A DNA stretch of 64,000 nucleotides, from contig CAKQLF010000006.1 of assembly GCA_934254585.1 (NCBI GenBank), positions 2,839 to 66,838 of the forward strand. The letters are read 5' to 3'. How positions within the stretch are numbered: the first letter of the stretch is position 1; every line of letters begins with the position of its first letter. This stretch comes from an uncultured Alphaproteobacteria bacterium. Its GTDB lineage: Bacteria > Pseudomonadota > Alphaproteobacteria > RF32 > CAG-239. Positions 6,284 through 64,000 of the stretch are shown in pieces. The position numbers and the translations under genes were made by a program. The notes beneath the pieces are model-generated. The model ran no database searches, was not told where the DNA came from, and saw only the letters and a program-made list of their open reading frames with translations.

Positions 6284-6454
6284 TTGATTTATTAAGAAGA
6301 GTTTGCTAAGGTTTGGGTATTGAATAATTCACCTGTTTTATGAGGAAAGAAAGATGAAAAATAAGCAATCAAAAGGTCTCTCTCTCTCTCTGCAAATCCT
6401 AACTGTCTGATTAAAGGCATATTTTCTGCCACTACAGACGTTTTTGCAAGTTTT
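6284..6454 (+). promoter_or_regulatory. Pilin-family 5' cassette, copy 1: a degenerate promoter (TTGATT-17-TAAGGT), GAGGAAAG RBS plus ATG, (CT)7, and a hairpin/T-run
   Basis: About 85% identical to the cassettes at 33321..33497 and 50365..50545. The -10 hexamer is TAAGGT rather than the TGcTATAAT seen in the other copies. Confidence 0.6.
6378..6391 (+). repeat. (CT)7 dinucleotide tract inside the cassette mini-ORF
   Basis: ctctctctctctct counted directly. The same position holds (CT)8 in copy 2 and (CT)7 in copy 3. Confidence 0.9.
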
Positions 6455-6796
6455 TTGAAGAATTTTAGTTGTAGAGAAACTACTCACTCACACTTCTTTA
6501 ATGTCATTAACGGGCTTGACCCGTTAATCTTGTCGCGACACACATTTTCTTCACTATTCTCAATCATTCGCGGGCACCTCTTTAGCGTCATTCGCTGGCA
6601 CAGACCAGCGAATCTAGATTGCCGGATCAGACTGTGCGTCACGTCCGGCAATGACAATAAGGTGGAGCATGTCGCGTTCGGCAATGACAGTAGATTGGGA
6701 CGATGGTTAAGAGCTGTTTGCAATTTAATAAATACCCCTCACTCGGCACTGTCGTGCCACTCTCTCCCGCACGGGGCGAGAGAGTATGGTCGTTCG

Positions 6797-7381
6797 ATGA
6801 TAGAAATGCTCGGAGTATTAGCTATAGTGGGTGTCCTTTCCGTCGGTGGTATCGCCGGCTATTCTAAGGCGATGGAAAAGTGGAGAATTAATAAGCTGAT
6901 GGAAGAATACAGTTATATGATACAAGGAATTTTAGGCCACTTAACTGAATTTCAAAAATTACCTCGCAATACCGGCCTCGTTGACGTTGGTTTAGCGATG
7001 AATTTTATCCCGTCAAATTGGAAAAAAATAAATCCATTACTCGCTTATGACACTTTCGGAAATGTGGTTAAACCTTATGCCAGAGATAAGCGCGTTGTCA
7101 TTGACTTTTATTTGGGAGGCTTTTCAGACGGACAAAAATCTAAAGGGTTTTCGCCCAGGATATGCGCCGCCATAATGAAAGATCTGGTCAAACCTTTACA
7201 TTCATCTTTAACCTACGCTTGGATATTTCGTGGTGGATTTGTTGTAACCGACCACTTTCGAGGCGACACACGTTGCACCTCCAATGTTACTTGTTTAAGA
7301 GACATCACTCCAGATGACATTAACCGAGTCTGCAACTTGTGTGACGGGGAAAGACAATGTTCCATTACAATTGAATTTTAA
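6797..7381 (+). CDS. Type IV pilin-like protein, copy 1. Start unresolved: 6797 is the only in-frame ATG and the frame is open from 6365
   Basis: GRSMIEMLGVLAIVGVLSVGGIAGYSKAM aligns with the prepilin N-terminal motif G-FTLIELMIVVAIIGILAA, with E at +5 and AIIG conserved. The Cys-rich C-terminus resembles a pilin D-region. It is a paralog of 33875, 50648 and 63150. The copy-2/4 GTG start position reads GAG here, so no equivalent start exists. Confidence 0.6.
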   Translation: MIEMLGVLAIVGVLSVGGIAGYSKAMEKWRINKLMEEYSYMIQGILGHLTEFQKLPRNTGLVDVGLAMNFIPSNWKKINPLLAYDTFGNVVKPYARDKRVVIDFYLGGFSDGQKSKGFSPRICAAIMKDLVKPLHSSLTYAWIFRGGFVVTDHFRGDTRCTSNVTCLRDITPDDINRVCNLCDGERQCSITIEF

Positions 7382-7420
7382 AATAATGGAAAAGTCTATT
7401 TCCCTTGTATACCCAATCAG

Positions 7421-7945
7421 TTATTCCGCCACTGCATATTGACGAAGTGAAATTTCATCATCTTCAGCTTTAAGATTCAAGCAATAAATGCAACAATCAT
7501 CACCTGTTCCGTAATATTCCGGCAACACGGCCCCCAACTTAAAACCGCATTTTTCATAGAAGCGGCGAGTCGGTGCATATTGCGCAGTACTGTCGGTTTT
7601 GACATACAATCGTTCCGCTCCGAAATTTCTCAGATACGCAATCAGATATTCTACCAACTGCCGACCTATTCCCAGACCACGATATTCATTCAGTGTTGAA
7701 AGCCAATAAAGCTCATAAGTTCCGGCTTTAGCGTCCGGCAACTCCTCAAAACACGCATAAGCAACCGTTTTGCCGTTATATTCGGCAAACAGAAAACGAT
7801 GTTCACAATCTTTGTTATTTAGTAAATGGCGAGCAATATCCATATTGAGTTTTATATCCCGCTCGTCAAAAAAACCGGTGGAAGAAGCTATTTGAGCAAT
7901 AATTTCCGGATCATCTTTTTTTAATATATTTCTGAAACTGAGCAT
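7421..7945 (-). CDS. GNAT-family N-acetyltransferase
   Basis: 174 aa. Acetyl-CoA binding motif region (RGLGIGRQLV) typical of GNAT enzymes. Confidence 0.75.
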   Translation of the reverse strand: MLSFRNILKKDDPEIIAQIASSTGFFDERDIKLNMDIARHLLNNKDCEHRFLFAEYNGKTVAYACFEELPDAKAGTYELYWLSTLNEYRGLGIGRQLVEYLIAYLRNFGAERLYVKTDSTAQYAPTRRFYEKCGFKLGAVLPEYYGTGDDCCIYCLNLKAEDDEISLRQYAVAE

Positions 7946-8200
7946 AATTACACTCCTTTCAGAACGTCTCGTACCTCACAAAAAGATAAAAAGTTAGAAG
8001 AAAATAATAAGACAGACCTGTTGTGGTTTCCGTCATTAAAACCGCATAAGGCAGCGGTCGGCGCGCAATTTAACATAAAAACTCCATCGTTGTTAACACA
8101 GTGCAAGATTGTTAAAATAACAACCTTACACTATCATTATAACTTTTTTTCAAAGAGTTTTCAAGCTAAAATATTTTTTTGAAGAATTTACTTGGTGTTC

Positions 8201-9316
8201 CTACATAGCCCGAGAATCATCTTTTCTATAAATCGCACGTTTTCGCAGATTATTGGATTTTTTTGTTTTCTCGGCACTTTTTATCACTTCCATATTATTG
8301 CTGACGATTTTATCATTCATTCTTCCCTTAACCTGCTCCAGTGTCTGAGGTTTTAAGGATTTTATATGGACAGTTTTTTTGGACTTGCTGATTTTATTGC
8401 TCAGCCAACCCATAGCGGATTCAATTTTGGCAACTATCGGCATTACCGCGCCTCCAACCACAGCTCCGCCTATTCCGCCGGCAACAAAACCAACAGGACC
8501 GGCGGTTAATCCGCCATAAGCCGCACCCAACACGCCCAAAACTGTGGCTCCGGCTTTCATACCCGCTTTTATATCTTCTTTAGAGTTTGCCACAACCCTT
8601 TCAAAATTGTTTTTATTTTCCTTTTCTTTTGTTTTCTCTTTTATTTTATCTAATAATTTTTTTTCATTCTTTTTCGGCTTGCGGATTTTATTGCTCAGCC
8701 AACCCATAGCGGATTCAATTTTGGCAACTATCGGCACTACCGTGCTTCCAACCATAGCTCCGCCTATTCCGCCGGCGACAAAACCAACCGGCCCCGCGGT
8801 TAATCCGCCATAAGCCGCGCCCAACACGCCCAAAACGGCGGCTCCGGCTTTCATACCCGCTTTTATGTCTTCTTTAGAGTTTGCCACAACCTTTTCCGCC
8901 GGAGCTTTAACAACCGGCACATCTTGTTTCTTTTGTGTTTGTTGACTGCGATTTTTATTCATAATAAGCCATTCTTTAAACTTTCTGGAAACAGGATTTA
9001 TTGCTCCATCGGCATCATACCCGAATTTTTCAATAAATTTATCTCCATTTTTAGCCACGTCCAACAATATATCTTTTGGCAGATTTTTACGATTTTCCGC
9101 ACTCATAACACTTTGCATATAAGTCAAAGCCTGACTTTTTAATTTTTCAATTGCTCTATCAGACTTAGCCAAGTGTTTCGTTTTACTTTGTAAATATTCC
9201 AAAAGTTCAAAATAATCAGTCATTGAACGTTCGTTATAGCCGGCTCGAAGGAGCTTGGCAAATTTATTTTTGTCATCTTCAGAATATTCTATTTTTCCAG
9301 GATTATTATCAGACAT
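8201..9316 (-). CDS. Hypothetical protein with a duplicated glycine-zipper membrane module
   Basis: 371 aa. A block of about 98 aa (VANSKEDIKAGMKAGA..LGVLGAAYGGLTAGPVGFVAGGIGGA..PIVAKIESAMGWLSNKI) occurs twice. GxxxG-rich hydrophobic segments are present. The N-terminal domain has no known homology. Confidence 0.6.
   Translation of the reverse strand: MSDNNPGKIEYSEDDKNKFAKLLRAGYNERSMTDYFELLEYLQSKTKHLAKSDRAIEKLKSQALTYMQSVMSAENRKNLPKDILLDVAKNGDKFIEKFGYDADGAINPVSRKFKEWLIMNKNRSQQTQKKQDVPVVKAPAEKVVANSKEDIKAGMKAGAAVLGVLGAAYGGLTAGPVGFVAGGIGGAMVGSTVVPIVAKIESAMGWLSNKIRKPKKNEKKLLDKIKEKTKEKENKNNFERVVANSKEDIKAGMKAGATVLGVLGAAYGGLTAGPVGFVAGGIGGAVVGGAVMPIVAKIESAMGWLSNKISKSKKTVHIKSLKPQTLEQVKGRMNDKIVSNNMEVIKSAEKTKKSNNLRKRAIYRKDDSRAM
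8390..8891 (-). repeat. In-frame tandem duplication: two units of about 208 bp with a 294-bp period (98 codons)
   Basis: Unit 1 at 8390..8597 and unit 2 at 8684..8891 are about 95% identical at the DNA level. Confidence 0.85.
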
Positions 9317-9401
9317 TAGCGGCTCCTTATAAAATTTTATTCATCTATGTTATGATAATACTTGATTATAAATATTTTGTCAATATTTTTACAAAAAACA
9401 T

Positions 9402-9442
9402 AAAAAAATAAATCAAATGAATTTGTTAATGTGATTCATTTG
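9402..9442 (-). terminator. Intrinsic terminator for galE: CAAATGAAT-N11-ATTCATTTG with a T-run on the minus strand
   Basis: 9-bp inverted repeat at 9414..9442. Read on the minus strand it is followed by TTTATTTTTTT. It lies directly downstream of the galE stop at 9469. Confidence 0.5.
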
Positions 9443-9468
9443 ATTTATAAAAGTCTTTGGTCAATTTT

Positions 9469-18982: not shown

Positions 18983-19753
18983 ATGAAAACATTACCTTTT
19001 TTATTATCTGCTTTGCTAGCCTACAGCACCTGTTTGAACGTTTATGCCGATGATTTTACCGACGAAACGTCCGATGACGATATTTTTGCCGACACCGATA
19101 CAAATGTTTCCAAACAAAACACGCAAACAGCAAATAAAACTTTATCCGCTTTTATCTCCAGTAGACTACCGGCCTCATCAGCCAAAAACATTGAAAATGC
19201 CGAAAAGGTTTTTTGTTATACGGTAGATTATGCCCAAGCCGATTATTCCGGATATACCATCAACGATTTAGCCATAACCGGCTCGTGTGGAGAACTTTCA
19301 GCTGACGGGAAGAATCTCATAAAAGATATGCTTTTAAACAATAATTTGGTATTTTCCACAGCTACCGACAGTTGCAATATAAATCCAAGAATTTTACTTC
19401 GCTACATAAACGGAATTGATTCAACCGACATTTTATTGTCTGCTCCTTGTCACTCCTTAACATTTTTCCACGGACGAGACATTTCAACCTTAAACGCCGC
19501 ACCGGGAAAAGATATTGTAGAGCAAATTGTCAGCACCTATTCATCTTTGAGTGAAAAATTTCTTTCTCCCGCACTTTTAGGGCAAATGGTTCCCAACGGA
19601 CAAGTTTTGACGCAAGACCAAAAAGAAATTGTAAGAAAAATAAACACCATAGAATCACCAAAAAAATGGAGTAAAAAACAAACCACAAACACAACAGCTC
19701 AAACACCGGCCGCAACAAAACCGACTCCCAAAGGTTGGAATAAGCTAAAGTAA
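18983..19753 (+). CDS. Hypothetical secreted protein
   Basis: 256 aa. Signal peptide MKTLPFLLSALLAYSTCLNVYA. AAGGAG RBS. No recognisable domain. Confidence 0.6.
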   Translation: MKTLPFLLSALLAYSTCLNVYADDFTDETSDDDIFADTDTNVSKQNTQTANKTLSAFISSRLPASSAKNIENAEKVFCYTVDYAQADYSGYTINDLAITGSCGELSADGKNLIKDMLLNNNLVFSTATDSCNINPRILLRYINGIDSTDILLSAPCHSLTFFHGRDISTLNAAPGKDIVEQIVSTYSSLSEKFLSPALLGQMVPNGQVLTQDQKEIVRKINTIESPKKWSKKQTTNTTAQTPAATKPTPKGWNKLK

Positions 19754-24882: not shown

Positions 24883-26457
24883 ATGTTTTATAATCAAAAT
24901 GAAATTTATACATCTCCTATTACTTCAAAATCAAATGAAGATTTAGATTATGAATTTGAAGGTTTTACAGAAAAAGATTATTTTCCGGACAACGAAAAAC
25001 AAAATATAAAAAATGTCGAAAATGATGATGTTTTTTATGATTGCTACATTATTTCAGCCGACGAGATAAATGACAAAATAAAACAAAAAACACTCGATGG
25101 TTCTGATTTAAATATTTATAATGCTGAAATACATAATGTGAATAATATTCGAGCAAATGCTGATAAAGCTATTGCTCTTTACAGTCAGAATAAAATTAAA
25201 GAAGCAGAAGCTATTATACCTGATTTTCAGAACTCTTTTGGCAACTATATAAAAAAACAAAATAACAATGTTATAGTAACAAACAATATATATCCGTCTA
25301 TTTGCCAAGCAGCCCATAACTCTATTTATAACAACTCCCAACGACAAATAGAAAATACGGCCGATACCGTAGTAAGTCTATTGGCACAGGGAAAAAGCAA
25401 AGAGGCTGATAAAATACTCCCCGGTATTTCATATAAATATGATAGTTCTTCCATACAGCAAATTAACAATATTCCGGTTTTAAACAAAAGCGATTATAAT
25501 AATCTATGTGATTGTATTGAAACAAAATTTAAGGCAACAAATGCGCTAAATAATATTGATAAGATTGAAGAAAATATACATAATAATGTTTCAGCCCTTA
25601 AATTCTATCCGACAAACAATAGTGGATTTGATGAAATTTCTGATTTAGGATTCTACGGCACATACTATGTCCCCGGATTACTAATAGAAAAAATTTCCAG
25701 AGAAAGTAAAAAATCCGTGCCCAATGTGATTAAATCAATAGAAAAAGAATCCGCAAAAGAACAACCATATCAACAAAATGATAAAGAGCTTAACGAATTT
25801 AAAGAAAGCTTACGTTCATTAACAGAACCAAATTATTATCAGTTTAATAATCTGTCTGATGATGATATAGCGGCTCTTAATGCATCTGTAGATTATGCTC
25901 ACTCCTTATCAAATAAGGAACTTGACGAACACATAAAGAGAATGTGTAGCACTATGAATTTAGTCAAAAAATCTTATTCTAATCTTAGTTTTGAACCAAA
26001 AAATATAAATAAAGATGATACAATTGATTTTTTTAAAAGCTTCACACCGGTAAAATCAAATAGCCCAACGGCAACAAGTAATGACACTAAAGAAATGTTG
26101 AAAGAACAAGCTATAACAGCTAAAATAGAAAGGCAAAAAAAAGTTTCTCAAAATTCACATAAAAACTCCAGCCCGCTTAAACAGCATTTAAAAGAACAAG
26201 CTAATGACAAACATAAATATGTTTTTATAGAAGTAGATGGTCGGCAAATTATGATAAGAAAAGATTTATATGATCAAAAACAAGCCGCTTTTAACACGAA
26301 GCTACCTATACAAAACAAAAAGCTATACGATAGAGGAGTTACAGCAGAGCGAAATGATGCCACTGCCGTTGCCAAAAATAAAATGTTTTTGCCGGAGCAA
26401 AGAAATACTCAAAAAAATATAATCTTACAAAAACTTATTCAAAAATGTCGAAATTAA
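24883..26457 (+). CDS. Large lineage-specific hypothetical protein, N/K-rich and low-complexity
   Basis: 524 aa. AAGGAGAG RBS. No recognisable domain. Confidence 0.55.
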   Translation: MFYNQNEIYTSPITSKSNEDLDYEFEGFTEKDYFPDNEKQNIKNVENDDVFYDCYIISADEINDKIKQKTLDGSDLNIYNAEIHNVNNIRANADKAIALYSQNKIKEAEAIIPDFQNSFGNYIKKQNNNVIVTNNIYPSICQAAHNSIYNNSQRQIENTADTVVSLLAQGKSKEADKILPGISYKYDSSSIQQINNIPVLNKSDYNNLCDCIETKFKATNALNNIDKIEENIHNNVSALKFYPTNNSGFDEISDLGFYGTYYVPGLLIEKISRESKKSVPNVIKSIEKESAKEQPYQQNDKELNEFKESLRSLTEPNYYQFNNLSDDDIAALNASVDYAHSLSNKELDEHIKRMCSTMNLVKKSYSNLSFEPKNINKDDTIDFFKSFTPVKSNSPTATSNDTKEMLKEQAITAKIERQKKVSQNSHKNSSPLKQHLKEQANDKHKYVFIEVDGRQIMIRKDLYDQKQAAFNTKLPIQNKKLYDRGVTAERNDATAVAKNKMFLPEQRNTQKNIILQKLIQKCRN

Positions 26458-26962: not shown

Positions 26963-28906
26963 ATGCCATTAAATACAAGAGATGTTACTGTTGATTATTT
27001 GCCGCAAGAAGGTATTGTCAACCTTGAGCAAAGATACAAAGAAAAAGATGTTGACACTGCAATGAAAGCGCAAAAAAATTTAGCATTGGAAAATGTTTCT
27101 ATTTATGCTCCGGGACTTGACACAGATTATTTGCGACAGTCTAACCGCGAAATAACCTATTCTTTTGCTTTGGCTAACATTTACCGCAGTATCAACACTA
27201 TTTACGACAAAATACAAATTAGAACTTCTGATGATGATGCGACTAAAAAATATAAGCAGATGGAAAAAGATTTGTTTGAAATGTTAGCTAAAAAAATTGA
27301 GAACATTTATCCTGAAGTTTTAAAAATTGAATATCCGGATTCCGGGCTGAAATTTGAAAACGGACGTGTTTCAGCAAATATGAAAGGTAATCCGGAAGCT
27401 GAATTAACCGATGCGGCCTTAAAAGAAAAAATCGGAACCTATCTTAATAATCTTACTCAAATTACCGAAGCCATAAAAAAAGATTCCCCGACTTTTCAAG
27501 CTTCATCAATGCAAATTTTAGAAGAATATACGGTTAAAGTTAATGACAAGCTGGAGGGAAAGAAAGTTATTGCAGAAGAAAAGACCGATGAAGAAATTAT
27601 CGGAGTGGTGAAAAAGAATATCGCACTGCTCATTCGTGATGACAGCAACAGTCAGGAAAGTTATAAAATTGACAGAGAACGGGCTGTTAACAGCTTGGCC
27701 CTAAAACTTGCTCCGTTAGGTATGGATTTAGAGGTTGTTCCCATAGAAGAAAAATCTCCGCAGGAAGAAACTTTAAGCCAAGCCAAAACTTGTATTTTGC
27801 GTGCTGCTTGGGATGGTTTTATTGAACGACCAAAACAATACAGCTGTTCTAAAACATTGCAAAATATTCTGTTGCATCCGCGACCGGGAGATAACAAACC
27901 GGAACAATATAATCTGCAGAAAAACGAAATTTGGAAACTTTGTGAAAAACTTCCGGAATTTGTTGAAGTCAGAAGTGATTTACAAAAAGCTTTGGCTAAT
28001 CGTCAATTTCCACCTGAAAAAGTGGCAGAATTAACTTATGCCGATATGGCTTATTTAATTTGCGAACAGCGTCAGTCTGCTTCCAGCGATGTGGAAAGAC
28101 GTCAAAAACGCGGTCAAAATGAGGTTGACGGCGTAAGAATGATATCCAGCGGACGTGCCAAATTTTTTGTAAACTATGTTAATAAACACGCTAATGATTT
28201 GAAAAAATTATTGACGGCCAAAGGAATGTCCCAAAAAGAAATTAAAACCACTTTGAACACTATGCGCGCCGGAAAAAGCGTTGATATTTTTGATGGTCAT
28301 CATAATTTTGCCATTAATGATCCGGATAGATTTTGCAAAATAACCGGTGAAAAATGGTGGGAGATGAATAATCACGTTGTTTTAATGGATAAAAAAGCCC
28401 ACAATTTGCTGCACTCTCTTGAAAACAATGTCACTTCCCGCGGTATTTTACTAAATGAAGAAGACAGTAAAACGTCGCACCGCACGATTTTTACGGATAA
28501 AAACAGCGGAAAAAAATTCTATCTGGCAATCAGAGTTAAAGAAGGTATTGACGGACTAATCGGGCTGCACAGAGAAACTATTTATGATAAAAAATATTTA
28601 ACTGATCATAGTTTTGAAAATGGTCAAAAAACAGGTTCTCAACCGCTAAAAGCAAAAAACAAAGCCGAAAAGTCCGAACAACGCAAAGCTGAAAAAGAAA
28701 CTTTTGCCCCAACAAACAATCAGCAAGCTTTGCAACACGCTAAAGAGCGCAAAACCAAGCTTAATGAGCAAAAAGCGACTTATACGCATCAAAACAAAGT
28801 TGAAAATAACCCACAACAAAATCCCAAAAAAGAACGTTTTGTCACTCGCAAAGATTATTTAGGTCAAAGAAACAAAGGTGGAGCGCAAAAATTTAACAAT
28901 CGCTAA
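26963..28906 (+). CDS. Large lineage-specific hypothetical protein
   Basis: 647 aa. GAGGTG RBS. No recognisable domain. K/E-rich C-terminal tail. Confidence 0.55.
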   Translation: MPLNTRDVTVDYLPQEGIVNLEQRYKEKDVDTAMKAQKNLALENVSIYAPGLDTDYLRQSNREITYSFALANIYRSINTIYDKIQIRTSDDDATKKYKQMEKDLFEMLAKKIENIYPEVLKIEYPDSGLKFENGRVSANMKGNPEAELTDAALKEKIGTYLNNLTQITEAIKKDSPTFQASSMQILEEYTVKVNDKLEGKKVIAEEKTDEEIIGVVKKNIALLIRDDSNSQESYKIDRERAVNSLALKLAPLGMDLEVVPIEEKSPQEETLSQAKTCILRAAWDGFIERPKQYSCSKTLQNILLHPRPGDNKPEQYNLQKNEIWKLCEKLPEFVEVRSDLQKALANRQFPPEKVAELTYADMAYLICEQRQSASSDVERRQKRGQNEVDGVRMISSGRAKFFVNYVNKHANDLKKLLTAKGMSQKEIKTTLNTMRAGKSVDIFDGHHNFAINDPDRFCKITGEKWWEMNNHVVLMDKKAHNLLHSLENNVTSRGILLNEEDSKTSHRTIFTDKNSGKKFYLAIRVKEGIDGLIGLHRETIYDKKYLTDHSFENGQKTGSQPLKAKNKAEKSEQRKAEKETFAPTNNQQALQHAKERKTKLNEQKATYTHQNKVENNPQQNPKKERFVTRKDYLGQRNKGGAQKFNNR

Positions 28907-33315: not shown

Positions 33316-33320
33316 TTTTA

Positions 33321-33497
33321 TTGATTTATTAAAAAGTATTTGCTATAATCATGGTGTTTAATAATTAACTATTTTTATGAGGAAAGAAAGATGAAAAATA
33401 AGCTTAGCAAAGGTCTCTCTCTCTCTCTCTGCAAATCCTAAATGTCTGATTAAAGGCATATTTTCTGCCGCTACAGACGTTTTTGCAAGTTTTTTCA
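33321..33497 (+). promoter_or_regulatory. Pilin-family 5' cassette, copy 2
   Basis: TTGATT at 33321-33326, a 17-nt spacer, then the extended -10 TGcTATAAT at 33341-33349. GAGGAAAG RBS with ATG at 33391. (CT)8 at 33415-33430. GTCTG..GGCA..UGCC..CAGAC hairpin followed by GTTTTTGCAAGTTTTTT. Confidence 0.65.
33415..33430 (+). repeat. (CT)8 tract, one unit longer than in copies 1 and 3
   Basis: Counted directly as ctctctctctctctct. Confidence 0.9.
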
Positions 33498-33829
33498 GAA
33501 AAAATGATGTATGCGAGAATAACAAGCACAGCACGAAACTGGCAGGCGGCACAAAGCAAGCAATTCTAGCACCAGTCATTCTAAGCCCTGTGCCTAGAAT
33601 CTTGTTGCAACAAGGTACTAACCTAGTCAATAAATTTGCCTTATTATTACATAAGTGTCGGTTCGCACAAGATTCTCGGGACAAGCCCGAGAATGGCGGT
33701 AGCTGGAGGTGTTGGCTTATTATTTGTTGCTCGTTTTTTAATCACCACTCACCCGACACTACCATGTCGACCGATAAGCCATCAAAGGGATTGGGTGTCG
33801 TGCGTCAATACGCCGCACTTTTGGAACGA

Positions 33830-33849
33830 CGTGTACAGAGTAGTACACG
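33830..33849 (+). promoter_or_regulatory. Perfect 7-bp inverted repeat CGTGTAC-N6-GTACACG, about 25 nt upstream of the GTG start
   Basis: The same inverted repeat occurs twice upstream of copy 4 (63775..63795 and 63889..63908). Confidence 0.5.
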
Positions 33850-33874
33850 AGCGCAAAAATTCCTAGCAGATGGC

Positions 33875-34567
33875 GTGCAGTACGGGAGAAGTATGATTGA
33901 AATGTTAGGCGTTCTGGCCATCATCGGTGTTTTGAGCGTTGCCGGAATCGCCGGTTATTCCAAGGCGATGACTAAGTGGAAAATCAACAAATCCATTGAA
34001 CAAATAGAGCAAATTACCCACAACACATTCACAACTTTTGCCAACCAAAAGGACTTTAGGTCTATATATTCTTCTGACGAAGATGGTATAAACCTTTTTA
34101 AATCTTTAGGCATAATCTCCGAGGATATGATTGTTGATGGTCAGCTAAAAAATTCATTTGGCGGGGATTTAAAACTGTATGCTGGCACATTTAATAGTAG
34201 TTATCTAACTCATTCAGGCGAAAAATATTTTTCACTTGAATACTGGAATATACCACGCGAAGCCTGTATGGCTTTGGGTTCCCTAGATTGGGCTAAAGGT
34301 TCTGATACTGTAATAGGTGTAGGAATCTCACCTAATCGTGATAATGTAATGATAGATCCTACTGAGTGTTGGCTTCTTAATTATCTCACCCTGGATTATC
34401 GCGACGGAGGCTGGTTAGTGGTTTGCAATAATGGTGTTCCAGATGAAGAGTATGGAGAAACGGAAGCTGATAGGATACCTCTGCCAATTCCGCTTGATAT
34501 TGTGGCCGAACATTGTAAATGCAAAGATAACGATTGTTATTTTGGCGTGGCCTTCACCGATAAATAA
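33875..34567 (+). CDS. Type IV pilin-like protein, copy 2. GTG start giving leader MQYG; the frame is open back to 33395
   Basis: QYGRSMIEMLGVLAIIGVLSVAGIAGYSKAM prepilin-type N-terminal helix. C-terminal Cys pairs (CKCKDNDC). Its 5' region is nearly identical to that of copy 4. Confidence 0.65.
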   Translation: MQYGRSMIEMLGVLAIIGVLSVAGIAGYSKAMTKWKINKSIEQIEQITHNTFTTFANQKDFRSIYSSDEDGINLFKSLGIISEDMIVDGQLKNSFGGDLKLYAGTFNSSYLTHSGEKYFSLEYWNIPREACMALGSLDWAKGSDTVIGVGISPNRDNVMIDPTECWLLNYLTLDYRDGGWLVVCNNGVPDEEYGETEADRIPLPIPLDIVAEHCKCKDNDCYFGVAFTDK

Positions 34568-47064: not shown

Positions 47065-47987
47065 CAGCTTTCTGCCAAATCATAGAGATTACCGACAATC
47101 TCACCTAGAGTTTCGGCTTTTTCCATTTGCAAATTAAGATTTTCAAAATCTTTTTCAGAAGCCACGGAATGCCAAGCGGAGGACTGTTGATAGCTTAATT
47201 TACCATTCTGTAAAAATATGATTAACTGATTGTCTTTGATGCGTAAATTAACTTTTGCCGCCTTAAATATTTCTTTCAAGTCTAAAATACTTTCAAACAA
47301 AGCTGAAACTAAAATATAATTTTTAATTTTTGAACTATCGGTAAAAATCTGAAAATAATTAGACGCCGGAATATTTAAGGAAATTTTTTCCAGTCCTTCA
47401 TATTTTTTTTGTTTTGCCACACCGCCTTTTTCAAACATTAAAAGCGTTCCGCGCAAATTTTGCTTAAAAGAGTAACTAAGCATTATGCCGCCACTATTTT
47501 TCACAATTTCATTTTGTTTTGTCTTGTTTTTCAACAAAGCAATTTTTTTCAATTCAAAAGCAAACTGCAAAAAATTCCCGCTGATTTTAAGTTGTTCCAC
47601 CAAATCTTCTTTAACCGGAAACAAAATATCTTTTTCTGCAAATACATTTTCTTCTTGCAGCTGCAAATTGTCATAATATTTGATATATTCGCGCAACATA
47701 TCAGTTTGCGGAATCGTTTTAGCGCGTCTTGCATACCACCACAAAAACAACACCGAAAAAGCAACAAGCAGCAACAGCTGTTCATAAGAAATAATATGGC
47801 CGGAAATCAAATGCCGAAACAACACAACCAATATATTTACACTGTTTACAAAACACAAAACACCGAAATAAAGCCAAAAGCGACTCCGAAAAGCATCACG
47901 ATTCCGGCCTTCTTCCTCCAATAGGGGTTTTAAATTTTGTTGAAAGAAATCATCAAAAGGATTGTTTTGAGAATTGTCATTTGTCAT
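47064..47987 (-). CDS. Hypothetical membrane protein, paralog of 46066..47064
   Basis: 307 aa. Same architecture as the adjacent gene. Directly downstream of lemA. Confidence 0.55.
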   Translation of the reverse strand: MTNDNSQNNPFDDFFQQNLKPLLEEEGRNRDAFRSRFWLYFGVLCFVNSVNILVVLFRHLISGHIISYEQLLLLVAFSVLFLWWYARRAKTIPQTDMLREYIKYYDNLQLQEENVFAEKDILFPVKEDLVEQLKISGNFLQFAFELKKIALLKNKTKQNEIVKNSGGIMLSYSFKQNLRGTLLMFEKGGVAKQKKYEGLEKISLNIPASNYFQIFTDSSKIKNYILVSALFESILDLKEIFKAAKVNLRIKDNQLIIFLQNGKLSYQQSSAWHSVASEKDFENLNLQMEKAETLGEIVGNLYDLAES

Positions 47988-47997
47988 TTTCTAAACC

Positions 47998-48579
47998 CTA
48001 CTTAAAATAGTTTTGACTGTTAATCGGTTGTCTTTCTGCTTCACTTATTTCAAAAAAAGGCATATTTTGAGAATTTATACCAACCAGTCTGGCAAAAATG
48101 TTTATCGGAAAAATATCGGCCAGATTTTTTAAGCTGTTAACATTAGAATTATAAAAACGGCGAGCCGCGGAAATATGCTCTTCCACCTCGTTCATACTTT
48201 GCATTGCCGCAATCATAGTTTGATTAGACTTTAAATCCGGATAATTTTCTAACGACACCTTGAAATCATTTAATTTTTGCGCCAATAAATTTTCCAACTT
48301 CATTTTTTCTTTTGGAGAATTGGCAAATGAGCTGCCCATCGCTTGAGTGCGTAGTTGAGTAAGTTCAGACATTAAGTTTTTTTCGTGTTCCATAAACTTT
48401 GCCGCCATCTGCAGCATATTGGGAATCAGATCATAACGTTTTTTCAACTGAACATCTATATCAGAGGCAGACTCCCGCACCTTATTGCGTAGAATTACCA
48501 AACGAGCATATAGCGCGTATAAAAGTACAAGAACAACAGCTGCCGTTATTATTTGCGGATTGAGCCAATCTATTTCCAT
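47998..48579 (-). CDS. lemA: LemA-family protein
   Basis: 193 aa. N-terminal TM helix and LemA core (NKVRESASDIDVQLKKRYDLIPN). Confidence 0.8.
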   Translation of the reverse strand: MEIDWLNPQIITAAVVLVLLYALYARLVILRNKVRESASDIDVQLKKRYDLIPNMLQMAAKFMEHEKNLMSELTQLRTQAMGSSFANSPKEKMKLENLLAQKLNDFKVSLENYPDLKSNQTMIAAMQSMNEVEEHISAARRFYNSNVNSLKNLADIFPINIFARLVGINSQNMPFFEISEAERQPINSQNYFK

Positions 48580-48710: not shown

Positions 48711-49187
48711 ATGGAAGACGCAAACAGAAGTAAAAAAATCCATAATTTGTTTAATAATCTGCATCATCTGAATAAAAAAGATGCCGAAGAAGTTGTGGCG
48801 AAGAAAAAGCAATCGGAAAACGACGAGAAAAAGAAAGAAATAAGACTCAGCCGTGCAGAAATAATTAAAGGTTTGCGTATGGGAAAATCGCTAGCGTTGC
48901 AAACTGAATTACGCAATCGCTTAAAACAAGCTACAGCCCGCCGCCGCAATTCTCGACTAAAAAGAAACAATTCAGAATTTTCTCAGAATCGTGAAGAGGA
49001 ACTGCGAAAATATACACGTAATTTACCGGAAAAGCAGCGCAAATTTGTGGAAAAAATATTTAAAGAAAACGGCGTTACGCCTTATACTGTGGCATTACTT
49101 AAAAAAGTCCGCAGTGCTGACGACTATCAAAATATTCCTGACAAACCTCGCCGCGTCTACTCTCGCCAGCGTCAGCGCAGCAAATAA
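48711..49187 (+). CDS. Highly basic K/R-rich hypothetical protein
   Basis: 158 aa. No recognisable domain. Confidence 0.45.
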   Translation: MEDANRSKKIHNLFNNLHHLNKKDAEEVVAKKKQSENDEKKKEIRLSRAEIIKGLRMGKSLALQTELRNRLKQATARRRNSRLKRNNSEFSQNREEELRKYTRNLPEKQRKFVEKIFKENGVTPYTVALLKKVRSADDYQNIPDKPRRVYSRQRQRSK

Positions 49188-49280
49188 AAAATTATAAAAT
49201 TTATTCAGATTTAATATTGACAAAAAAGCTATTTTTTGCTATTTTTGGTAAGATATTTAATTATTAAAAATTTTATTACT

Positions 49281-49775
49281 ATGACTAATTATTTTACATC
49301 TTTGGTTGAGGAAAATCGTATTGCTGTTCTTACTAAACAAGTATTTAACCAACGTCTTGAGAAAGACAGCCAGTCTTCTTTTGTTCAAGTTTTGAGCCTT
49401 GATGAAGAAAAAGCCATTATCTCGCAATTTTTGAAAACAAAATCGGCCGACTGGTTAAAATTTATAAGAGAATATGTAAATCACTACCCTCTCAATCCGA
49501 ATAATTTTGTTTTGTTGGTTGATGACCTAAAAACAGATTCTGTAAAAAAATTTGTGGCCGACTACTTAAAAATGTATGGCACTAATGAAAAAGAAAGTCT
49601 GGCCATTTGCAAAAAAATTCGCGAAACCGAAGATTTTGACGAAAGTTTTTTAACGACTTTCTGCAGCACGGCTCGCCATTATTACAAAACCGTTTCTTAT
49701 CAATTAGATGATATTGATGAAAAATGGAACAAAATGTATAATGACGCTATAGCCCAAAATTCGAAATTAGTTTAA
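49281..49775 (+). CDS. Hypothetical protein
   Basis: Track ORF from 49236. The first ATG in that frame is at 49281 (MTNYFTSL). Confidence 0.45.
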   Translation: MTNYFTSLVEENRIAVLTKQVFNQRLEKDSQSSFVQVLSLDEEKAIISQFLKTKSADWLKFIREYVNHYPLNPNNFVLLVDDLKTDSVKKFVADYLKMYGTNEKESLAICKKIRETEDFDESFLTTFCSTARHYYKTVSYQLDDIDEKWNKMYNDAIAQNSKLV

Positions 49776-49916
49776 TTCGAAAAAAATAAGGTCTGATACA
49801 ATAAATCAGGCCTTATTTTGTTACAAAATCGTGACATTTTTACCTTATTTTAAATAAATATTTGCACACTTTAAAAAAAATTGATAATTTAAATAAGTAG
49901 AGCAAGGAGGCTTAAA

Positions 49917-50357
49917 ATGCGTAATTTATATAACGCGATACCTTTAACGATAGAGCAAAAAGTTGCTTATATTCGTGTACTTGCTTATATGGCAAAATCT
50001 GATTGCAATCCGGATTATATTGAACAGAATTTTACCGGTAAATTGTTGGAAAGAATGAATCTTTCACCGGATATTTTGAAAAAAATTTTTATACCTCGCA
50101 ACAATGAGGAATTGTATCGAGCTTTAATGCCGATTTGCACTCGCACCATTGCCATTGATTTATTGCATTGCCTATGGTTTGCGGCCTCGGTTAACACCAT
50201 TATTTCTGATGAGGAAATAATGATTATTCGGAAGATAGCCCAAATCTTACGCATTGATAACGATACACTTTTAAATATTCACCATTTTGTTACTGATGAA
50301 ATTATGTTTTTGCAGCACGCCAAAGACGTTTTGGAAGCAGATGACATAAAATGTTAA
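49917..50357 (+). CDS. Hypothetical protein, possibly a TerB-like helical domain
   Basis: 146 aa. AAGGAGG RBS. The helical pattern resembles TerB/DjlA-N-like domains. This is a weak call. Confidence 0.4.
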   Translation: MRNLYNAIPLTIEQKVAYIRVLAYMAKSDCNPDYIEQNFTGKLLERMNLSPDILKKIFIPRNNEELYRALMPICTRTIAIDLLHCLWFAASVNTIISDEEIMIIRKIAQILRIDNDTLLNIHHFVTDEIMFLQHAKDVLEADDIKC

Positions 50358-50364
50358 TCTCTTA

Positions 50365-50545
50365 TTGATTTGTTAAGAAGTGCTTGCTATAATCAAGGTG
50401 TTTAATAGTTCACCTAATTTTATGAGGAAAGAAAGATGAAAAATAAGCAATCAAAAGGTCTCTCTCTCTCTCTGCAAATCCTAAATGTCTGATTAAAGGC
50501 ACATTTTCTGCTGCTACAGACGTTTTTACGAGTTTTTACAGAAAA
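50365..50545 (+). promoter_or_regulatory. Pilin-family 5' cassette, copy 3
   Basis: TTGATT at 50365-50370, a 17-nt spacer, then TGcTATAAT at 50385-50393. RBS with ATG at 50436. (CT)7 at 50460-50473. Hairpin followed by GTTTTTACGAGTTTTTAC. Confidence 0.65.
50460..50473 (+). repeat. (CT)7 tract
   Basis: Counted directly. Confidence 0.9.
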
Positions 50546-50647
50546 AATGATATATTAAAAAACCATCAACTCAGCGACGATTATACAGACTCACCCCATG
50601 CGGAAGATGTCACTGGATTGCTTCGCTATGCTCGCAATGACAGTAAG

Positions 50648-51253
50648 GTGCAGTGTGGACGAAGTATGATAGAAATGCTTGGCGTTCTGGCCATAATCGG
50701 CGTTCTGTCTGTCGGCGGTATTGCCGGTTATTCCAAGGCAATGATGAAATTCAAAACCAATCAAATTGCCGACCAAGTATCCACTATCGTAACTAATATC
50801 AAAACACTATACGCTCAGCAGAAAAACTACGAGGGGCTGAATAATGCTTCTGCTGTATCAATGGGAATTATACCGGACAAATTAGGCTCTGATTTAACCC
50901 ATCCATTTGGCGGAAATGTAGGCGTTTATTCAGATTATGGTATAAACACATTCTTTATTGAATATAAAGAGTTACCAAAAGAGGCTTGTATAAGTTTGGC
51001 AACTAATGACTGGGGCGCAAGTATTTCATCCGGTTTAGTTGCTATGGCTGTTAGCACTTATAGTACTTACATTCCTCCAATCTTAAACAAAATGTATTTA
51101 GGTTGCCAGGGGGAAGAACAATATTGGGGACGAGCTTATATAGCTTGCCCTGGTGGTTCGGTTCTGTCTGTTCCGATGAGTCCGGAAAAAGCCTCCGCCG
51201 CTTGTGCTTGTGATAAGGGAAATACTTGTTCGGTTGGTTGGATGTATCACTAA
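50648..51253 (+). CDS. Type IV pilin-like protein, copy 3. GTG start giving leader MQCG; an alternative TTG at 50618; the frame is open back to 50447
   Basis: CGRSMIEMLGVLAIIGVLSVGGIAGYSKAM. The alpha1 extension QVSTIVTNIKTLYAQQKNYEGL is shared with copy 4. C-terminal Cys cluster. Confidence 0.65.
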   Translation: MQCGRSMIEMLGVLAIIGVLSVGGIAGYSKAMMKFKTNQIADQVSTIVTNIKTLYAQQKNYEGLNNASAVSMGIIPDKLGSDLTHPFGGNVGVYSDYGINTFFIEYKELPKEACISLATNDWGASISSGLVAMAVSTYSTYIPPILNKMYLGCQGEEQYWGRAYIACPGGSVLSVPMSPEKASAACACDKGNTCSVGWMYH

Positions 51254-51259
51254 CAATCT

Positions 51260-51290
51260 AAAAAAGAGAGGTCTTGCCTCTCTTTTTTTT
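51260..51290. terminator. Bidirectional intrinsic terminator: A-run, GAGAGG-tcttg-CCTCTC, then T8
   Basis: Lies between the convergent pilin copy 3 and the lipoprotein gene. Confidence 0.7.
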
Positions 51291-52685: not shown

Positions 52686-52762
52686 GCGCTCGTAGCTTAA
52701 TTGGATAGAGCATCTGACTACGGATCAGAAGGTTGTGAGTTCGAGTCCCGCCGAGCGCGCCA
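52686..52762 (+). tRNA. tRNA-Arg, anticodon ACG, with encoded CCA
   Basis: Manual fold: acceptor 1-7 with 67-73 (GCGCTCG/CGAGCGC); D-arm; anticodon stem TCTGA/TCAGA with loop CTACGGA; T-loop TTCGAGT. The T-stem GTGAG/CCCGC contains one A-C mismatch. Confidence 0.85.
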
Positions 52763-52823: not shown

Positions 52824-53690
52824 ATGCACACAGAACTCGTTACTTTAGAATATTTACCGCAATATGAAGCCTATGGCCTCAGTGATGAACAAATACGATT
52901 TTATGACGAACAACACATAATCCCCTTGCTGTCTTTGCTTCCTGATGACATTCGGCAACTGGGAGGCACGCTAAATAACAATCAGCCGACAGTGGCGTTT
53001 TTATTGGGACGTGATGAAAATTACTACACCATTGACTATAACTATGCTCGCGCTGTTTTACAATCCGGAGTTAATATCAGACTTTTAACCTATTCCGCTT
53101 GCAAAGAGCAAATGCAGGGAATCGACGGGCTGATTCTCCCCGGCGGAAGATTTCCCTCGCCGGAACAATTTTATTGCGATGCCGCACCGAATAACTTATT
53201 GCCACACGAAGCCCGCGCACAAGCCTATCTTGATTGCATTGACACAGCCTTAAAGCAACAGTTGCCGATGCTTGGTATCTGCGCCGGTGCGCAGATGATT
53301 GGCGGCGTTATGGGAATGAAAATGTATCGCAATACCAAACAGTATACTAATACAGATATTGAACATAAAACCAAAATATTAGATGCCCACAAAGTTTTGA
53401 TTCAAAAACCATCTCCGTTGTTTGATATTTTACAAACAACGGAAATTGAAACCAATTCACGCCATACCGAATCGATGTTACCTTATGCTTCTGACAGTAA
53501 GCTGACAATTTATGCTCGCACAGAAGACAACGTTCCCGAGGCTTGGGGAAATACCGAAAAACACATATTGTGCATTCAGTGGCACCCCGAAGATTTTGCC
53601 GCCAACGGAGATATTTCAATGCAACGCATTTATAACTGGTTGGCACAACAAGCTCAAAATCACAAAATAAAATTTGACAAAAATTTCTAA
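52824..53690 (+). CDS. Class I glutamine amidotransferase-like protein (peptidase C26 / gamma-glutamyl hydrolase family)
   Basis: 288 aa. Cys nucleophile in GICAGAQ and His in QWHPE. Confidence 0.75.
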   Translation: MHTELVTLEYLPQYEAYGLSDEQIRFYDEQHIIPLLSLLPDDIRQLGGTLNNNQPTVAFLLGRDENYYTIDYNYARAVLQSGVNIRLLTYSACKEQMQGIDGLILPGGRFPSPEQFYCDAAPNNLLPHEARAQAYLDCIDTALKQQLPMLGICAGAQMIGGVMGMKMYRNTKQYTNTDIEHKTKILDAHKVLIQKPSPLFDILQTTEIETNSRHTESMLPYASDSKLTIYARTEDNVPEAWGNTEKHILCIQWHPEDFAANGDISMQRIYNWLAQQAQNHKIKFDKNF

Positions 53691-53917: not shown

Positions 53918-54763
53918 ATGTATCAAGTATTATTTTTGGCTTATATGCCTAAACTTAAAGCTTTTGTAGTTTCTGACACTAAAGTTAATAAGGTTATTGC
54001 CAAGGGAAATATTCCTGTTTTCAAAATTCAGCCTGATGATGCTAAAGTTCTTGGCCTTAAGGTTACGGACAGAACTCCGACAATCGGTTTTTTGCTTGGA
54101 CGTGAAAAAGGGTATTATTCTATTGATTTTAACTATGCTAAGGCTATATCTATGGCCGGCGGAGCTATTCAGGGCTTGAGCTATACTCTGATTGAAGAAC
54201 AGATGAAAAGCATTGACGGATTAGTTCTTCCCGGCGGTTCTTTTGTTTCTCCGGACGAGTTCTATGCAAATCGCGTAGACAATCCTGAAGAACCAACTGC
54301 TCGCTCGGAGGCTTATCTTGAAGCTATCCGAGTTGCCGAAGAAAACGCAATTCCTATCTTGGGAATCTGTGCCGGAGCGCAAATGGTTGCAGGTGTACAC
54401 GGAATGAAAATGTTCCGCGATTTAAGCGAAGTATCTCCTTCTGTTGAACACAAGACTTCTGAGGTAAATGCTCATCAGGTTATTACTTATCCGGCGACAC
54501 CTCTCCGCGAGTTGTTAGGTAAAAAAATTACCGTAAACTCTCGTCATAGAGAAGGCCTTGTTCCAAACGACTGGAACAGCGACCTTGAAATTTACGCCGT
54601 TTCTTCCGATTGCATACCTGAAGCTTGGGGCAATATGGAAGAAGGTATTTTGTGCGTGCAATGGCATCCTGAAGATTTTGTCGTCAACGGCGATAGAAAG
54701 ATGTTGGGTATTTATAAGTGGCTTGTATGTAAAAGCCAAAACAGAATGGAATTTTCAGACTGA
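53918..54763 (+). CDS. Class I glutamine amidotransferase-like protein, a tandem paralog
   Basis: 281 aa. Same motifs (GICAGAQ, QWHPEDF). About 45% identical to the upstream paralog by eye. Confidence 0.75.
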   Translation: MYQVLFLAYMPKLKAFVVSDTKVNKVIAKGNIPVFKIQPDDAKVLGLKVTDRTPTIGFLLGREKGYYSIDFNYAKAISMAGGAIQGLSYTLIEEQMKSIDGLVLPGGSFVSPDEFYANRVDNPEEPTARSEAYLEAIRVAEENAIPILGICAGAQMVAGVHGMKMFRDLSEVSPSVEHKTSEVNAHQVITYPATPLRELLGKKITVNSRHREGLVPNDWNSDLEIYAVSSDCIPEAWGNMEEGILCVQWHPEDFVVNGDRKMLGIYKWLVCKSQNRMEFSD

Positions 54764-60043: not shown

Positions 60044-60148
60044 CGCTGATGAACTTTTGTTAACGACATAAGGCACTTTTAATTAAGTGCCTTTGTCGCT
60101 TTTTTATTTGAAAAAAAATTACACATAACCTTTTGTAAGGAATAGATA

Positions 60149-61801: not shown

Positions 61802-61810
61802 GAGACTTTT

Positions 61811-63109: not shown

Positions 63110-63116
63110 GATTGAG

Positions 63117-63151
63117 CGTAAAAGGCGGAAGTAAAATAACTTCCGCTTTTT
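63117..63151. terminator. Bidirectional terminator: GCGGAAG-taaaataa-CTTCCGC plus T5
   Basis: Lies between the convergent ugd and pilin copy 4. Confidence 0.6.
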
Positions 63152-63749
63152 ATCTGAAGAAAAGTCCCATACAAACGGTGCCATCTTGTTGAGCTCTATT
63201 GCAGTATTTGTTGGCCATATCAAAACTTATGATATTATTTCCGCCTTCAGCACAAACAAAATAAGCACCCTTTATTTCTATTTTTCCGGAACAACCTTGT
63301 CCGGTTTGCTTTATTCCTGCAGCTCCATTCAAAAAATTATGAGCGAGAACAATAGATATGCCGTACAAACCATTAGCATTGCCACCCCACTGTTGGGTGG
63401 TTAAAGCCAAGCATTGTCTTGCAGTCAGTCCGCAAATGCGTAAACCGAATAAGGCTCCATCTTCAGAAGCTCTTAATCGTACATCGGTATTTTTCCCCAA
63501 TGGCAAATTCCAATTGTTTTCCGGATACACACCGGCTTGTAATGCGGTTGAATCAGACAAACCTTCATACGATTTTTGCTGCATATAAAGCGTTTGCACA
63601 TTAGTGGCTATTTGTGTCAGATAATCAATAGTTTTATCTATTTTCCACTTTTCCATCGCTTTTGAATAGCCGGAGATTCCGCCGACGGAGAGAACAGCGA
63701 TTATGGCGAGAACGCCGAGCATTTCTATCATACTTCTCCCATACTGCAC
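63150..63749 (-). CDS. Type IV pilin-like protein, copy 4. GTG start at 63749 giving leader MQYG; the frame stays open upstream to beyond the window end
   Basis: QYGRSMIEMLGVLAIIAVLSVGGISGYSKAM. The alpha1 extension is shared with copy 3. C-terminal Cys residues are present. Its 5' cassette would lie beyond position 64000. Confidence 0.65.
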   Translation of the reverse strand: MQYGRSMIEMLGVLAIIAVLSVGGISGYSKAMEKWKIDKTIDYLTQIATNVQTLYMQQKSYEGLSDSTALQAGVYPENNWNLPLGKNTDVRLRASEDGALFGLRICGLTARQCLALTTQQWGGNANGLYGISIVLAHNFLNGAAGIKQTGQGCSGKIEIKGAYFVCAEGGNNIISFDMANKYCNRAQQDGTVCMGLFFR

Positions 63750-63774
63750 GCCATCTGCTAGGAATTTTCTCGCT

Positions 63775-63908
63775 CGTGTACTTTTTTTGTACACGTCGCT
63801 TAAAAATCCCGTCGCATCTGACGCACATTGCGGAAGAAGATTTCTAATATGTTTTGTCTGTTTGGTTACTGCTCGCGCTTTTCTCACTCGTGTACTACTC
63901 TGTACACG
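63775..63908 (-). promoter_or_regulatory. Two copies of the inverted repeat CGTGTAC-N6/7-GTACACG upstream of pilin copy 4
   Basis: 63775..63795 has an A7 spacer and 63889..63908 has spacer agagta. It is the same operator-like inverted repeat as at 33830..33849. Confidence 0.5.
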
Positions 63909-64000
63909 TCGTTCTAAAAGTGCGGCGTATTGACGCACGACATCCAATCCCTTGAATGTGATTGTATTTTTCTTTCTATAATCAATCACCCTCTCAACAT

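Follow-up and report, generated by a model that had tools for sequence, protein, structure and literature searches.

The 64,000-nt stretch of DNA analysed here (the window; positions 2,839 to 66,838 of contig CAKQLF010000006.1, assembly GCA_934254585.1) comes from an uncultured Alphaproteobacteria bacterium and carries four dispersed open reading frames (ORFs), c1 to c4, that encode pilin homologues. Three of them (c1, c2 and c3) lie behind a common cassette in which a (TC)n tract separates the start codon from the pilin and decides whether the start codon is in the pilin frame (ON) or out of it (OFF). A preliminary description, made from the sequence alone, had reported four paralogous ORFs with a shared block, synonymous codon differences between the copies and cysteines in the C-terminus, and all of this held on reanalysis. 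The block G-RSMIEMLGVLAI[IV][GA]VLSV[GA]GI[AS]GYSKAM is present in all four ORFs, Arg is encoded as CGT, AGA or CGA and Ser as TCG or AGT, and conserved cysteines occur in the C-terminal half. Apart from c1-c4, the window contains no class-III-signal-like N-terminus. With a slash marking the predicted cleavage site, G/RSMIEMLGVLAIIGVLSVGGIAGY is found in 4/4 window copies and in all 87 motif matches across 80 related loci. The mature proteins are 194-226 amino acids (aa) long and have Arg at +1, and every copy has 70-163 codons of open pilin frame ahead of Gly-1. A terminator had been ascribed to each gene; terminator-like hairpins were seen 3' of c2, c3 and c4. Hadza gut metagenome sequence (L096, L107) matches parts of the window at 100% identity, in the case of L096 over 5,190 nt. 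The parts of the four genes are as follows.

6284..6312, plus strand: c1 promoter-like site, TTGATT-17 nt-TAAGGT, read from the sequence; the -10 is weaker than those of c2 and c3, and the site is a homologue of the one detected by scanning in c3
6342..6356, plus strand: c1 Shine-Dalgarno (SD) sequence GAGGAAAG and cassette ATG (6354)
6377..6391, plus strand: c1 (TC)7T tract; the ATG frame (6354-6410) stops after 18 codons, OFF
6392..6790, plus strand: c1 translated spacer-leader, 132 codons from tract to Gly-1 (6788-6790), 0 stops, short hairpin repeats
6791..7381, plus strand: c1 mature pilin (RSMIEML...ITIEF), divergent subfamily, without Pfam match
33321..33349, plus strand: c2 promoter-like site, TTGATT-17 nt-TATAAT
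33391..33430, plus strand: c2 ATG (33391) and (TC)8T tract (33414-33430); stop after 16 codons, OFF
33431..33886, plus strand: c2 translated spacer-leader, 151 codons to Gly-1 (33884-33886), 0 stops
33887..34567, plus strand: c2 mature pilin, 226 aa; PilS_N and Bundlin sub-threshold, aligns with the c3 family
50365..50393, plus strand: c3 promoter-like site, TTGATT-17 nt-TATAAT with a TG-extended -10; 10/12 matches
50436..50473, plus strand: c3 ATG (50436) and (TC)7T tract (50459-50473), OFF
50474..50659, plus strand: c3 translated spacer-leader, 61 codons to Gly-1 (50657-50659), 0 stops
50660..51253, plus strand: c3 mature pilin, 197 aa, supported by Bundlin, PilS_N, structure prediction and Foldseek; intrinsic-terminator hairpin at about 51260-51290
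63150..63737, minus strand: c4 mature pilin, 195 aa, matched by Pfam Bundlin
63738..64000, minus strand: c4 leader, clipped by the window end; it runs in L096 to a GTG about 202 nt past the window

Pilin class and fold

All four products have a class III signal, with Gly-1, Glu+5 and a hydrophobic helix of about 20 residues. The earlier assignment to pilins is further supported by matches that cover more than this signal. At the Pfam level, c3 scores above the gathering score with both Bundlin (PF05307, 49.4 bits) and PilS_N (PF08805, 44.7 bits), and c4 with Bundlin (26.0 bits, cut-off 22.3). A family profile built from 67 sequences and compared with PDB sequences matched BfpA (4.5e-12), TcpA (2e-4) and Salmonella Typhi PilS (3e-4). 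The structure prediction proposed at the outset as a check gave the same answer. The AlphaFold2 model of c3 (predicted local distance difference test score, pLDDT, 84) has a 46-residue N-terminal helix (9-54) on an alpha/beta head, and the top 10 Foldseek hits in the PDB are all CofA, TcpA or PilS, with probability 1.0 and template modelling (TM) scores of 0.5-0.68. The model of c1 (pLDDT 86, helix 8-50) shares the lollipop fold, a long N-terminal alpha-helix on a beta-sheet head, to which the closest structures are pilins. For c1 itself there was no Pfam match, and a Foldseek search with c1 likewise came back empty. Its kinship is seen in the alignment of the c1-family head with the c3-family head by hhalign, where the shared N-terminus had been removed and c1 excluded from the target (165 columns, probability 94.8, E 5e-8). 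Taken together, the Pfam matches of c3 and c4, the PDB profile matches, the fold and the alignment of the c1 and c3 heads establish c1-c4 as type IVb-class pilin homologues of two subfamilies.

Arg at +1 had been described as unusual. Since a residue other than Phe is normal at +1 in type IVb pilins and Arg is family-wide, with G/RS in every relative examined except for one G/HS, it is no peculiarity of c1-c4. Type IVb pilins are defined by about 180-200 aa in the mature form, a +1 residue other than Phe and a leader of 15-30 residues (PMC3927602). The length and the +1 residue of c1-c4 place them in this class, whereas their leaders, at 61-155 residues or more, are outside the range.

A shared cassette with a (TC)n tract

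The cassette common to c1, c2 and c3 is about 180 nt long (6279-6455, 33316-33494 and 50361-50537). It consists, in this order, of a sigma-70-like promoter, an SD sequence, ATG AAA AAT AAG (CAA TCA or CTT AGC) AAA GG, and (TC)nT, the tract starting 23 nt after the ATG. The tract is (TC)7T in c1 and c3 and (TC)8T in c2. At every locus with this cassette, the ATG is in the pilin frame only if n is a multiple of 3; c1 and c2, for example, would be in frame at n=6 or 9. Translation in the ATG frame ends after 18 codons when n=7 and after 16 codons when n=8, so that all three window genes (n=7, 8 and 7) are OFF. A promoter cassette had been suggested for each gene; c1, c2 and c3 do have promoter-like sites, and c4 is without such a cassette in this strain. 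With its SD, ATG and (TC)7-8 tract, the cassette goes beyond a promoter.

A programmed ribosomal frameshift at the tract was considered and rejected, since the same locus occurs with n=7, which would need a -1 shift, and with n=8, which would need a +1 shift, and one directional shift cannot rescue both. Rfam, at gathering thresholds over the whole window, returned a tRNA-Arg alone and no known RNA element in the cassette.

Beyond the window, a pattern scan of metagenome contigs found a cassette 25-mer in 83 stretches. Divergent cassettes of the same design, with n=5, 8 or 10, are present at four loci in four metagenome-assembled genome (MAG) assemblies (L007, L008, L020, L062); three of the four are from species other than that of L006, L025 and L038, and L008 is from that same MAG.

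Long translated leaders

The region between tract and pilin shows a strong reading-frame signal. We compared 13 distinct spacers of 183-747 nt, drawn from the window, from a second species (L006, L025, L038) and from strain alleles of the c2 and c4 loci. All of them are divisible by 3 in length, and their pilin frame contains 0 stops in 1,969 codons, compared with 97 and 163 in the other frames. The naive probability of a stop-free pilin frame is about 1e-59, although the spacers are partly related. At the c2 locus, the spacers of strain alleles measure 450, 453, 462, 552 and 747 nt; each is open and divisible by 3. The metagenome scan extends this to 40 of 41 complete cassette-pilin pairs, which are open over spacers of 162-909 nt and whose state follows n exactly. 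Because there are no stops in 1,969 codons and all spacer lengths are multiples of 3, the open frame is not due to chance and indicates selection for a translatable leader. What is encoded seems to matter little. At the c2 locus, the ratio of nonsynonymous to synonymous change (dN/dS) is 0.6-1.9 in the leader and 0.2-0.46 in the mature part, consistent with a leader whose amino-acid sequence is almost free to drift and a mature part under purifying selection.

The leaders are about 60-260 residues long, the longest (about 260) being found among strain alleles, and are made up of short hairpin-forming repeats such as ATTCGCTGG-N6-CCAGCGAAT and CGTGTAC-N6/7-GTACACG. Within the 64-kb window these hairpin modules occur in the pilin leaders only. 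Generic genome-wide repetitive extragenic palindromic elements were accordingly rejected as their identity, the leader modules in the window being confined to the regions upstream of pilins. Some of the modules found in relatives coincide exactly with the G/RS site, which is then duplicated.

These leaders bear directly on where the genes start. The preliminary description had them begin with the GTG at VQ[YC]G or the ATG of MIEML, as short monocistrons, in which case the cassette would be a promoter followed by a small regulatory upstream ORF. Gene callers do produce 194-195-aa products from MIEML (P0001, P0127), and GGGAG lies 4 nt before the MIEML ATG in c2 and c4. However, a start at MIEML drops Gly-1, Arg+1 and Ser+2, so that no prepilin site is left, and the GTG start gives a 3-residue leader without an SD and does not exist in c1. 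Leaders of 0-4 residues compare poorly with the 7-13 residues of conventionally started relatives (MRVNESG/, MNNYKYDEQSG/, MKQNQLG/). Short genes would also leave unexplained 0 stops in about 2,000 codons, the multiple-of-3 spacers and the in-frame long precursors described below. We therefore regard this arrangement as extremely improbable; the view of simple monocistrons had missed the (TC)n frame switch, the long translated leaders and a repertoire of at least 20 copies. Since gene callers begin members of the family at MIEML or at an arbitrary TTG or GTG, thousands of database entries are probably mis-started. Exact-product look-ups with c2 and c4 started at MIEML gave no entries, and the c2 and c4 loci were traced via neighbouring genes.

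Tract-length variation and the ON/OFF state

Tract length is polymorphic at otherwise identical loci. For the c3 locus, the window was compared with seven contigs from other samples. Of these eight sequences, six have n=7 and two have n=8; the flanks are identical over about 320 nt and the tract is the sole difference. At the c2 locus, strains have n=7 or 8. Complete tracts in the metagenome scan were distributed as n=7 in 41 cases, n=8 in 15, n=6 in 5 and n=4 in 1.

Natural ON alleles exist. Four cassette-pilin pairs with n=6 (L113, L142, L165, L168) encode uninterrupted 268-343-aa precursors that run from MKNKLFKGLSLSANP through G/RSMIEML to the pilin stop. A protein 76% identical to c3 (P0002) has (TC)3 and is encoded by a single 271-aa ORF from MKNK to the pilin stop, and database N-terminal fragments with n=6, 9 and 12 begin MKNKQSKG(LS)nANP. 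The 40 complete stop-free pairs comprise these 4 ON (n=6) and 36 OFF genes. The census is that of the metagenome pattern scan; a word-index search for ON leaders gave 6 matches and missed P0002.

Based on these data, we think it probable that the window genes belong to a type IVb pilin repertoire subject to phase variation by slipped-strand mispairing at (TC)n, at least three of them acting as on/off contingency loci. Each such locus comprises promoter, SD, ATG and (TC)n. If n is a multiple of 3, ribosomes starting at the ATG would read through the leader into the pilin, whereas at n=7 or 8 they would stop after 16-18 codons. Slippage would switch each locus independently, presumably often enough and reversibly, so that a cell might express a small and changing subset of at least 20 pilins, resulting in phase and antigenic variation of the pilus. 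A prepilin peptidase would then remove the long cytoplasmic leader at G/R, leaving a mature pilin that begins with Arg+1; the unconstrained leader sequence would be explained if the peptidase simply discards it. Machinery encoded elsewhere would assemble the pilins that are ON. With its SD-GTG start and no simple sequence repeat (SSR), c4 is constitutively in frame.

Several observations weigh against this reading. At c1, n=7 in the window and in all 7 other contigs examined. The ON state, at 4/40, is rarer than the expected one third (p = 6.5e-4), and all three cassette loci of the window, as well as all of the at least 10 loci examined first, were OFF. Such an excess would fit immune or counter-selection acting on a big repertoire, and equally fits mostly silent loci. 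Tract differences were seen between samples, in assembled consensus sequences, and not within one population. Leaders of 60-260 residues are far beyond the 15-30 residues of type IVb prepilins (PMC3927602), and their cleavage is predicted. A match to the N_methyl models, the check named in the preliminary description, was obtained below both curated cut-offs: PF07963 gave 13.6-14.9 bits against 21.2, with no match for c1, and TIGR02532 gave 9.6-15.7 bits against 16.3. These are near-misses, and Arg+1/Ser+2 stand in place of the usual F/M-T. Finally, the window and 1.16 Mb of flanks yielded neither an A24 peptidase nor an assembly ATPase, a platform protein or a secretin, a negative that is not genome-wide.

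The search for machinery was made in several ways. Motif searches (T2SSE Walker A, A24 GGGD box, secretin) over the 1.16 Mb around homologous and cassette loci matched only FtsK-, PriA- and UvrB-like proteins, as judged by motif and ORF length. A Pfam scan of 28 other window ORFs, together with precomputed Pfam assignments for neighbours, contained no T2SSE, T2SSF, Peptidase_A24 or secretin domain, in agreement with the earlier statement that the window has no assembly machinery. Because Pfam matches nothing in several ORFs of the window (e.g. 4027..4731, 18983..19753, 24883..26457 and 26963..28906), this result applies to recognisable domains only. Scanning 10 neighbours of tandemly clustered pilins with Pfam likewise gave no machinery, and of about 190 loci none has machinery linked to it.

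Consequently, one may ask whether these proteins belong to pili at all. Proteins with a class III signal could work outside type IV pili, as substrates or pseudopilins of a system like type II secretion or of another system, or as membrane-anchored surface proteins, the likeness of fold being ancestral. The lack of linked machinery at about 190 loci and the sub-threshold N_methyl scores would fit this explanation, as would the name 'GspH family' given by NCBI to a relative (P0165) and the use of the cassette by a larger G/HSMIEML protein with GGxVG repeats (L180). On the other hand, major type IVb pilins (CofA, TcpA, BfpA and PilS) give the best structure and profile matches, the mature length of 194-226 aa, conserved cysteines and Glu+5 suit major pilins, and at least 20 variable copies would be expected of an exposed filament subunit more than of a periplasmic pseudopilus. 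For these reasons, we consider a role outside pili very unlikely.

Exchange of start and leader modules

The c4 gene differs from the other three in its start. In L096, its frame extends from Gly-1 back over 155 codons as far as AAGGAG-N6-GTG, without a repeat tract, and gene callers predict the resulting 350-aa product, which includes a 155-aa leader. In strain L098 the c4 pilin lies behind a (TC)7 cassette instead. Conversely, the SSR-free module (AAGGAG-GTG, leader MLENG(K/R)MG) that precedes c4 here is found elsewhere on a c1-type pilin: P0128 (L196:949-1944), 98% identical, comes from another strain, where it carries the 'MLENG' leader and occupies a third locus, behind a DnaJ-domain gene. 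These combinations imply that start/leader modules and pilin bodies have been reshuffled between loci. The c2 locus (L104-L108; window 33316-34567), between the CoA-transferase gene and mnmA, holds strongly different bodies of 205-236 aa. Synonymous divergence (pS) is 0.14-0.65 for these bodies and 0.04-0.15 for the leaders. One allele (L106), a putative mosaic, is c2-like for about 40 residues and c3-like thereafter.

One alternative is a store of silent cassettes. Most copies would then be permanently silent donors, similar to Neisseria pilS, which recombine or convert into a few expressed loci such as c4, and (TC)n would be a by-product or secondary. The predominance of OFF genes (36/40 of those linked to a cassette), the swapping of 5' modules between bodies (c4 with GTG in one strain and (TC)7 in L098; P0128/L196), the very different bodies at the c2 locus with one putative c2/c3 mosaic, and leaders less diverged than bodies, as if homogenised, all point in this direction. 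Yet silent copies of the pilS type are promoterless and 5'-truncated, whereas each copy here keeps its promoter, SD, ATG, uninterrupted frame and complete class III signal. In addition, in-frame alleles occur at several loci and the mature parts are under purifying selection. A store of this kind, which we judge unlikely, is in any case compatible with an SSR switch and need not replace it.

Family size and distribution

The family is large, with about 7,650 clusters at 50% identity at E<=1e-3 and 4,678 at E<=1e-10. Single MAGs of gut and rumen Alphaproteobacteria hold 20 or more copies. In one sample, about 24 cassette-bearing contigs have a coverage of 9-11x, which suggests at least 20 switchable loci in one genome. 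All related loci are in MAGs labelled uncultured Alphaproteobacteria, from the guts of human, ruminant and horse. Contigs very often end within or just past the cassette or the conserved 5' end of the pilin (L109-L111, L100-L103 and many of L113-L192). These repeats fragment metagenome assemblies, and MAGs probably under-count the family as a result.

Some members depart from the common build. At L180:227-3181 (plus strand), a much larger protein, with a class III signal, G/HSMIEMLGILAI, followed by GGxVG-type repeats, is driven by the same cassette, here with (TC)8, and leader; the cassette is therefore not limited to pilins of about 200 aa, and the protein could be a tip or minor pilin adhesin. 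Two members have decayed: in L186 (minus strand, cassette ATG at 2621) the tract is interrupted (TCTCTCTCTATCTCT) and RSMIEMLGVLAI has been lost from the pilin, and in L141:7951 (plus strand) there is a frameshift, with 3 stops in the leader. At L112:2501-3647, an IS110-family transposase gene lies inside the leader just after an in-frame (n=6) cassette and cuts the ORF to 77 aa (P0121); a 219-aa gene comes after it. P0124 (92 aa, on a 1,176-nt contig) begins with the in-frame cassette peptide MKNKQSKGLSLSLSANP and runs into a GARS_C (purD C-terminal) domain, which represents either a cassette in or next to purD or a chimeric assembly.

Comparison with known systems

In the bfp, tcp, cof and lng systems and the pil systems of R64 and S. 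Typhi, the pilin gene is in an operon with assembly genes. The proteins described here are like the type IVb major pilins BfpA, TcpA, CofA/LngA and S. Typhi PilS in several respects: Gly-1 and Glu+5 in the class III signal, a +1 residue other than Phe, about 190-230 aa in the mature form, and a long helix at the N-terminus with an alpha/beta head and C-terminal cysteines. They differ in having Arg at +1 and leaders of either 7-13 (short forms) or 60-260 aa as opposed to 15-30 (PMC3927602). Further differences are the N_methyl scores below cut-off, the presence of at least 20 dispersed copies per genome in place of one gene inside an assembly operon, and the host, a commensal-type uncultured gut alphaproteobacterium and not an enteric gammaproteobacterial pathogen.

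Regarding the tract, Neisseria opa genes carry CTCTT repeats in the leader-coding region, and pilC has a poly-G in the signal region. Like opa, the present genes form a multigene family of mostly OFF copies. In Helicobacter pylori oipA, a CT tract in the signal-peptide region sets ON or OFF by slippage according to its length (PMC10564699). The tract studied here similarly is a CT/TC repeat in the 5' coding part, as in oipA and genes of the sabA/babA type, and lies in a leader that is predicted to be cleaved, as a signal part is. Unlike oipA, opa and pilC, the genes presumably switched here are type IV pilins, the tract is 160-900 nt upstream of the functional protein with a translated spacer in between that is free to drift, and the promoter-ATG-tract unit is a conserved cassette across dozens of loci. 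With Neisseria pilE/pilS the family shares many paralogs, conserved 5' parts, variable bodies and signs of mosaics or module exchange; it differs in that its copies are complete with promoter, SD and ATG, are type IVb and not IVa, and have no single expression locus identified. Rickettsia palindromic elements, which are in-frame insertions in protein-coding genes (PMC10969869), resemble the leader modules in being hairpin repeats inserted in frame and translated, both in Alphaproteobacteria. Unlike them, the modules of the window are found only in pilin leaders, a part expected to be cut off. We found no paper with 'RSMIEML' and none on the pilins of this lineage or their switch.

A broader proposal, which we put forward tentatively as possible, is that a common lineage of gut Alphaproteobacteria may have type IVb antigenic variation of an undescribed build. 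Dozens of dispersed pilins would stand behind portable promoter-ATG-(TC)n cassettes, with neutral, peptidase-discarded leaders of up to about 260 residues composed of hairpin repeats, and modules would recombine between loci. If this is the case, type IVb pili, the textbook colonisation factors of a few enteric pathogens, would not be confined to them, and would constitute a highly diversified major surface system of a widespread commensal-type gut lineage (Hadza, other humans, ruminants, horses). SSR switching of at least 20 variants would imply strong fluctuating selection, with host immunoglobulin A, phage and niche or receptor choice as possible sources. Furthermore, a class III leader could have an essentially arbitrary sequence and a length of tens to hundreds of residues, which the prepilin peptidase would have to tolerate.

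Gene neighbourhood and other features of the window

As had been stated, the surroundings are housekeeping: Pfam identifies pheS, ftsZ/A/Q, murB, ftsW, ATP synthase, clpB and CoA-transferase genes as window neighbours, and also mnmA, ssb, fmt, tpiA, secG, pyrG and ugd. Clustering the flanks of 80 homologous loci gave 166 unrelated clusters, again mostly housekeeping, and the pilins are not in an assembly-gene operon.

Directly 5' of the c3 cassette, at 48711-50357 (plus strand), are three small ORFs without Pfam matches, one of which has a faint TerB similarity. They lie downstream of 46066-48579, where the minus strand carries two DUF3137 paralogs in tandem and then a LemA gene. The sole tRNA of the window (Arg-ACG, 52686-52762) is just upstream of two adjacent paralogous Peptidase_C26/GATase genes (52824-53690 and 53918-54763) that share a 69-nt stretch at 72% identity. 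The ORF 8201..9316 (minus strand; 371 aa, without Pfam match) contains two 232-nt direct repeats at 8371-8896, 92% identical and 294 nt apart. Its counterpart elsewhere is 273 aa long versus 371 aa (L089 and L090 versus L091-L093), which suggests variation in the copy number of the repeat.

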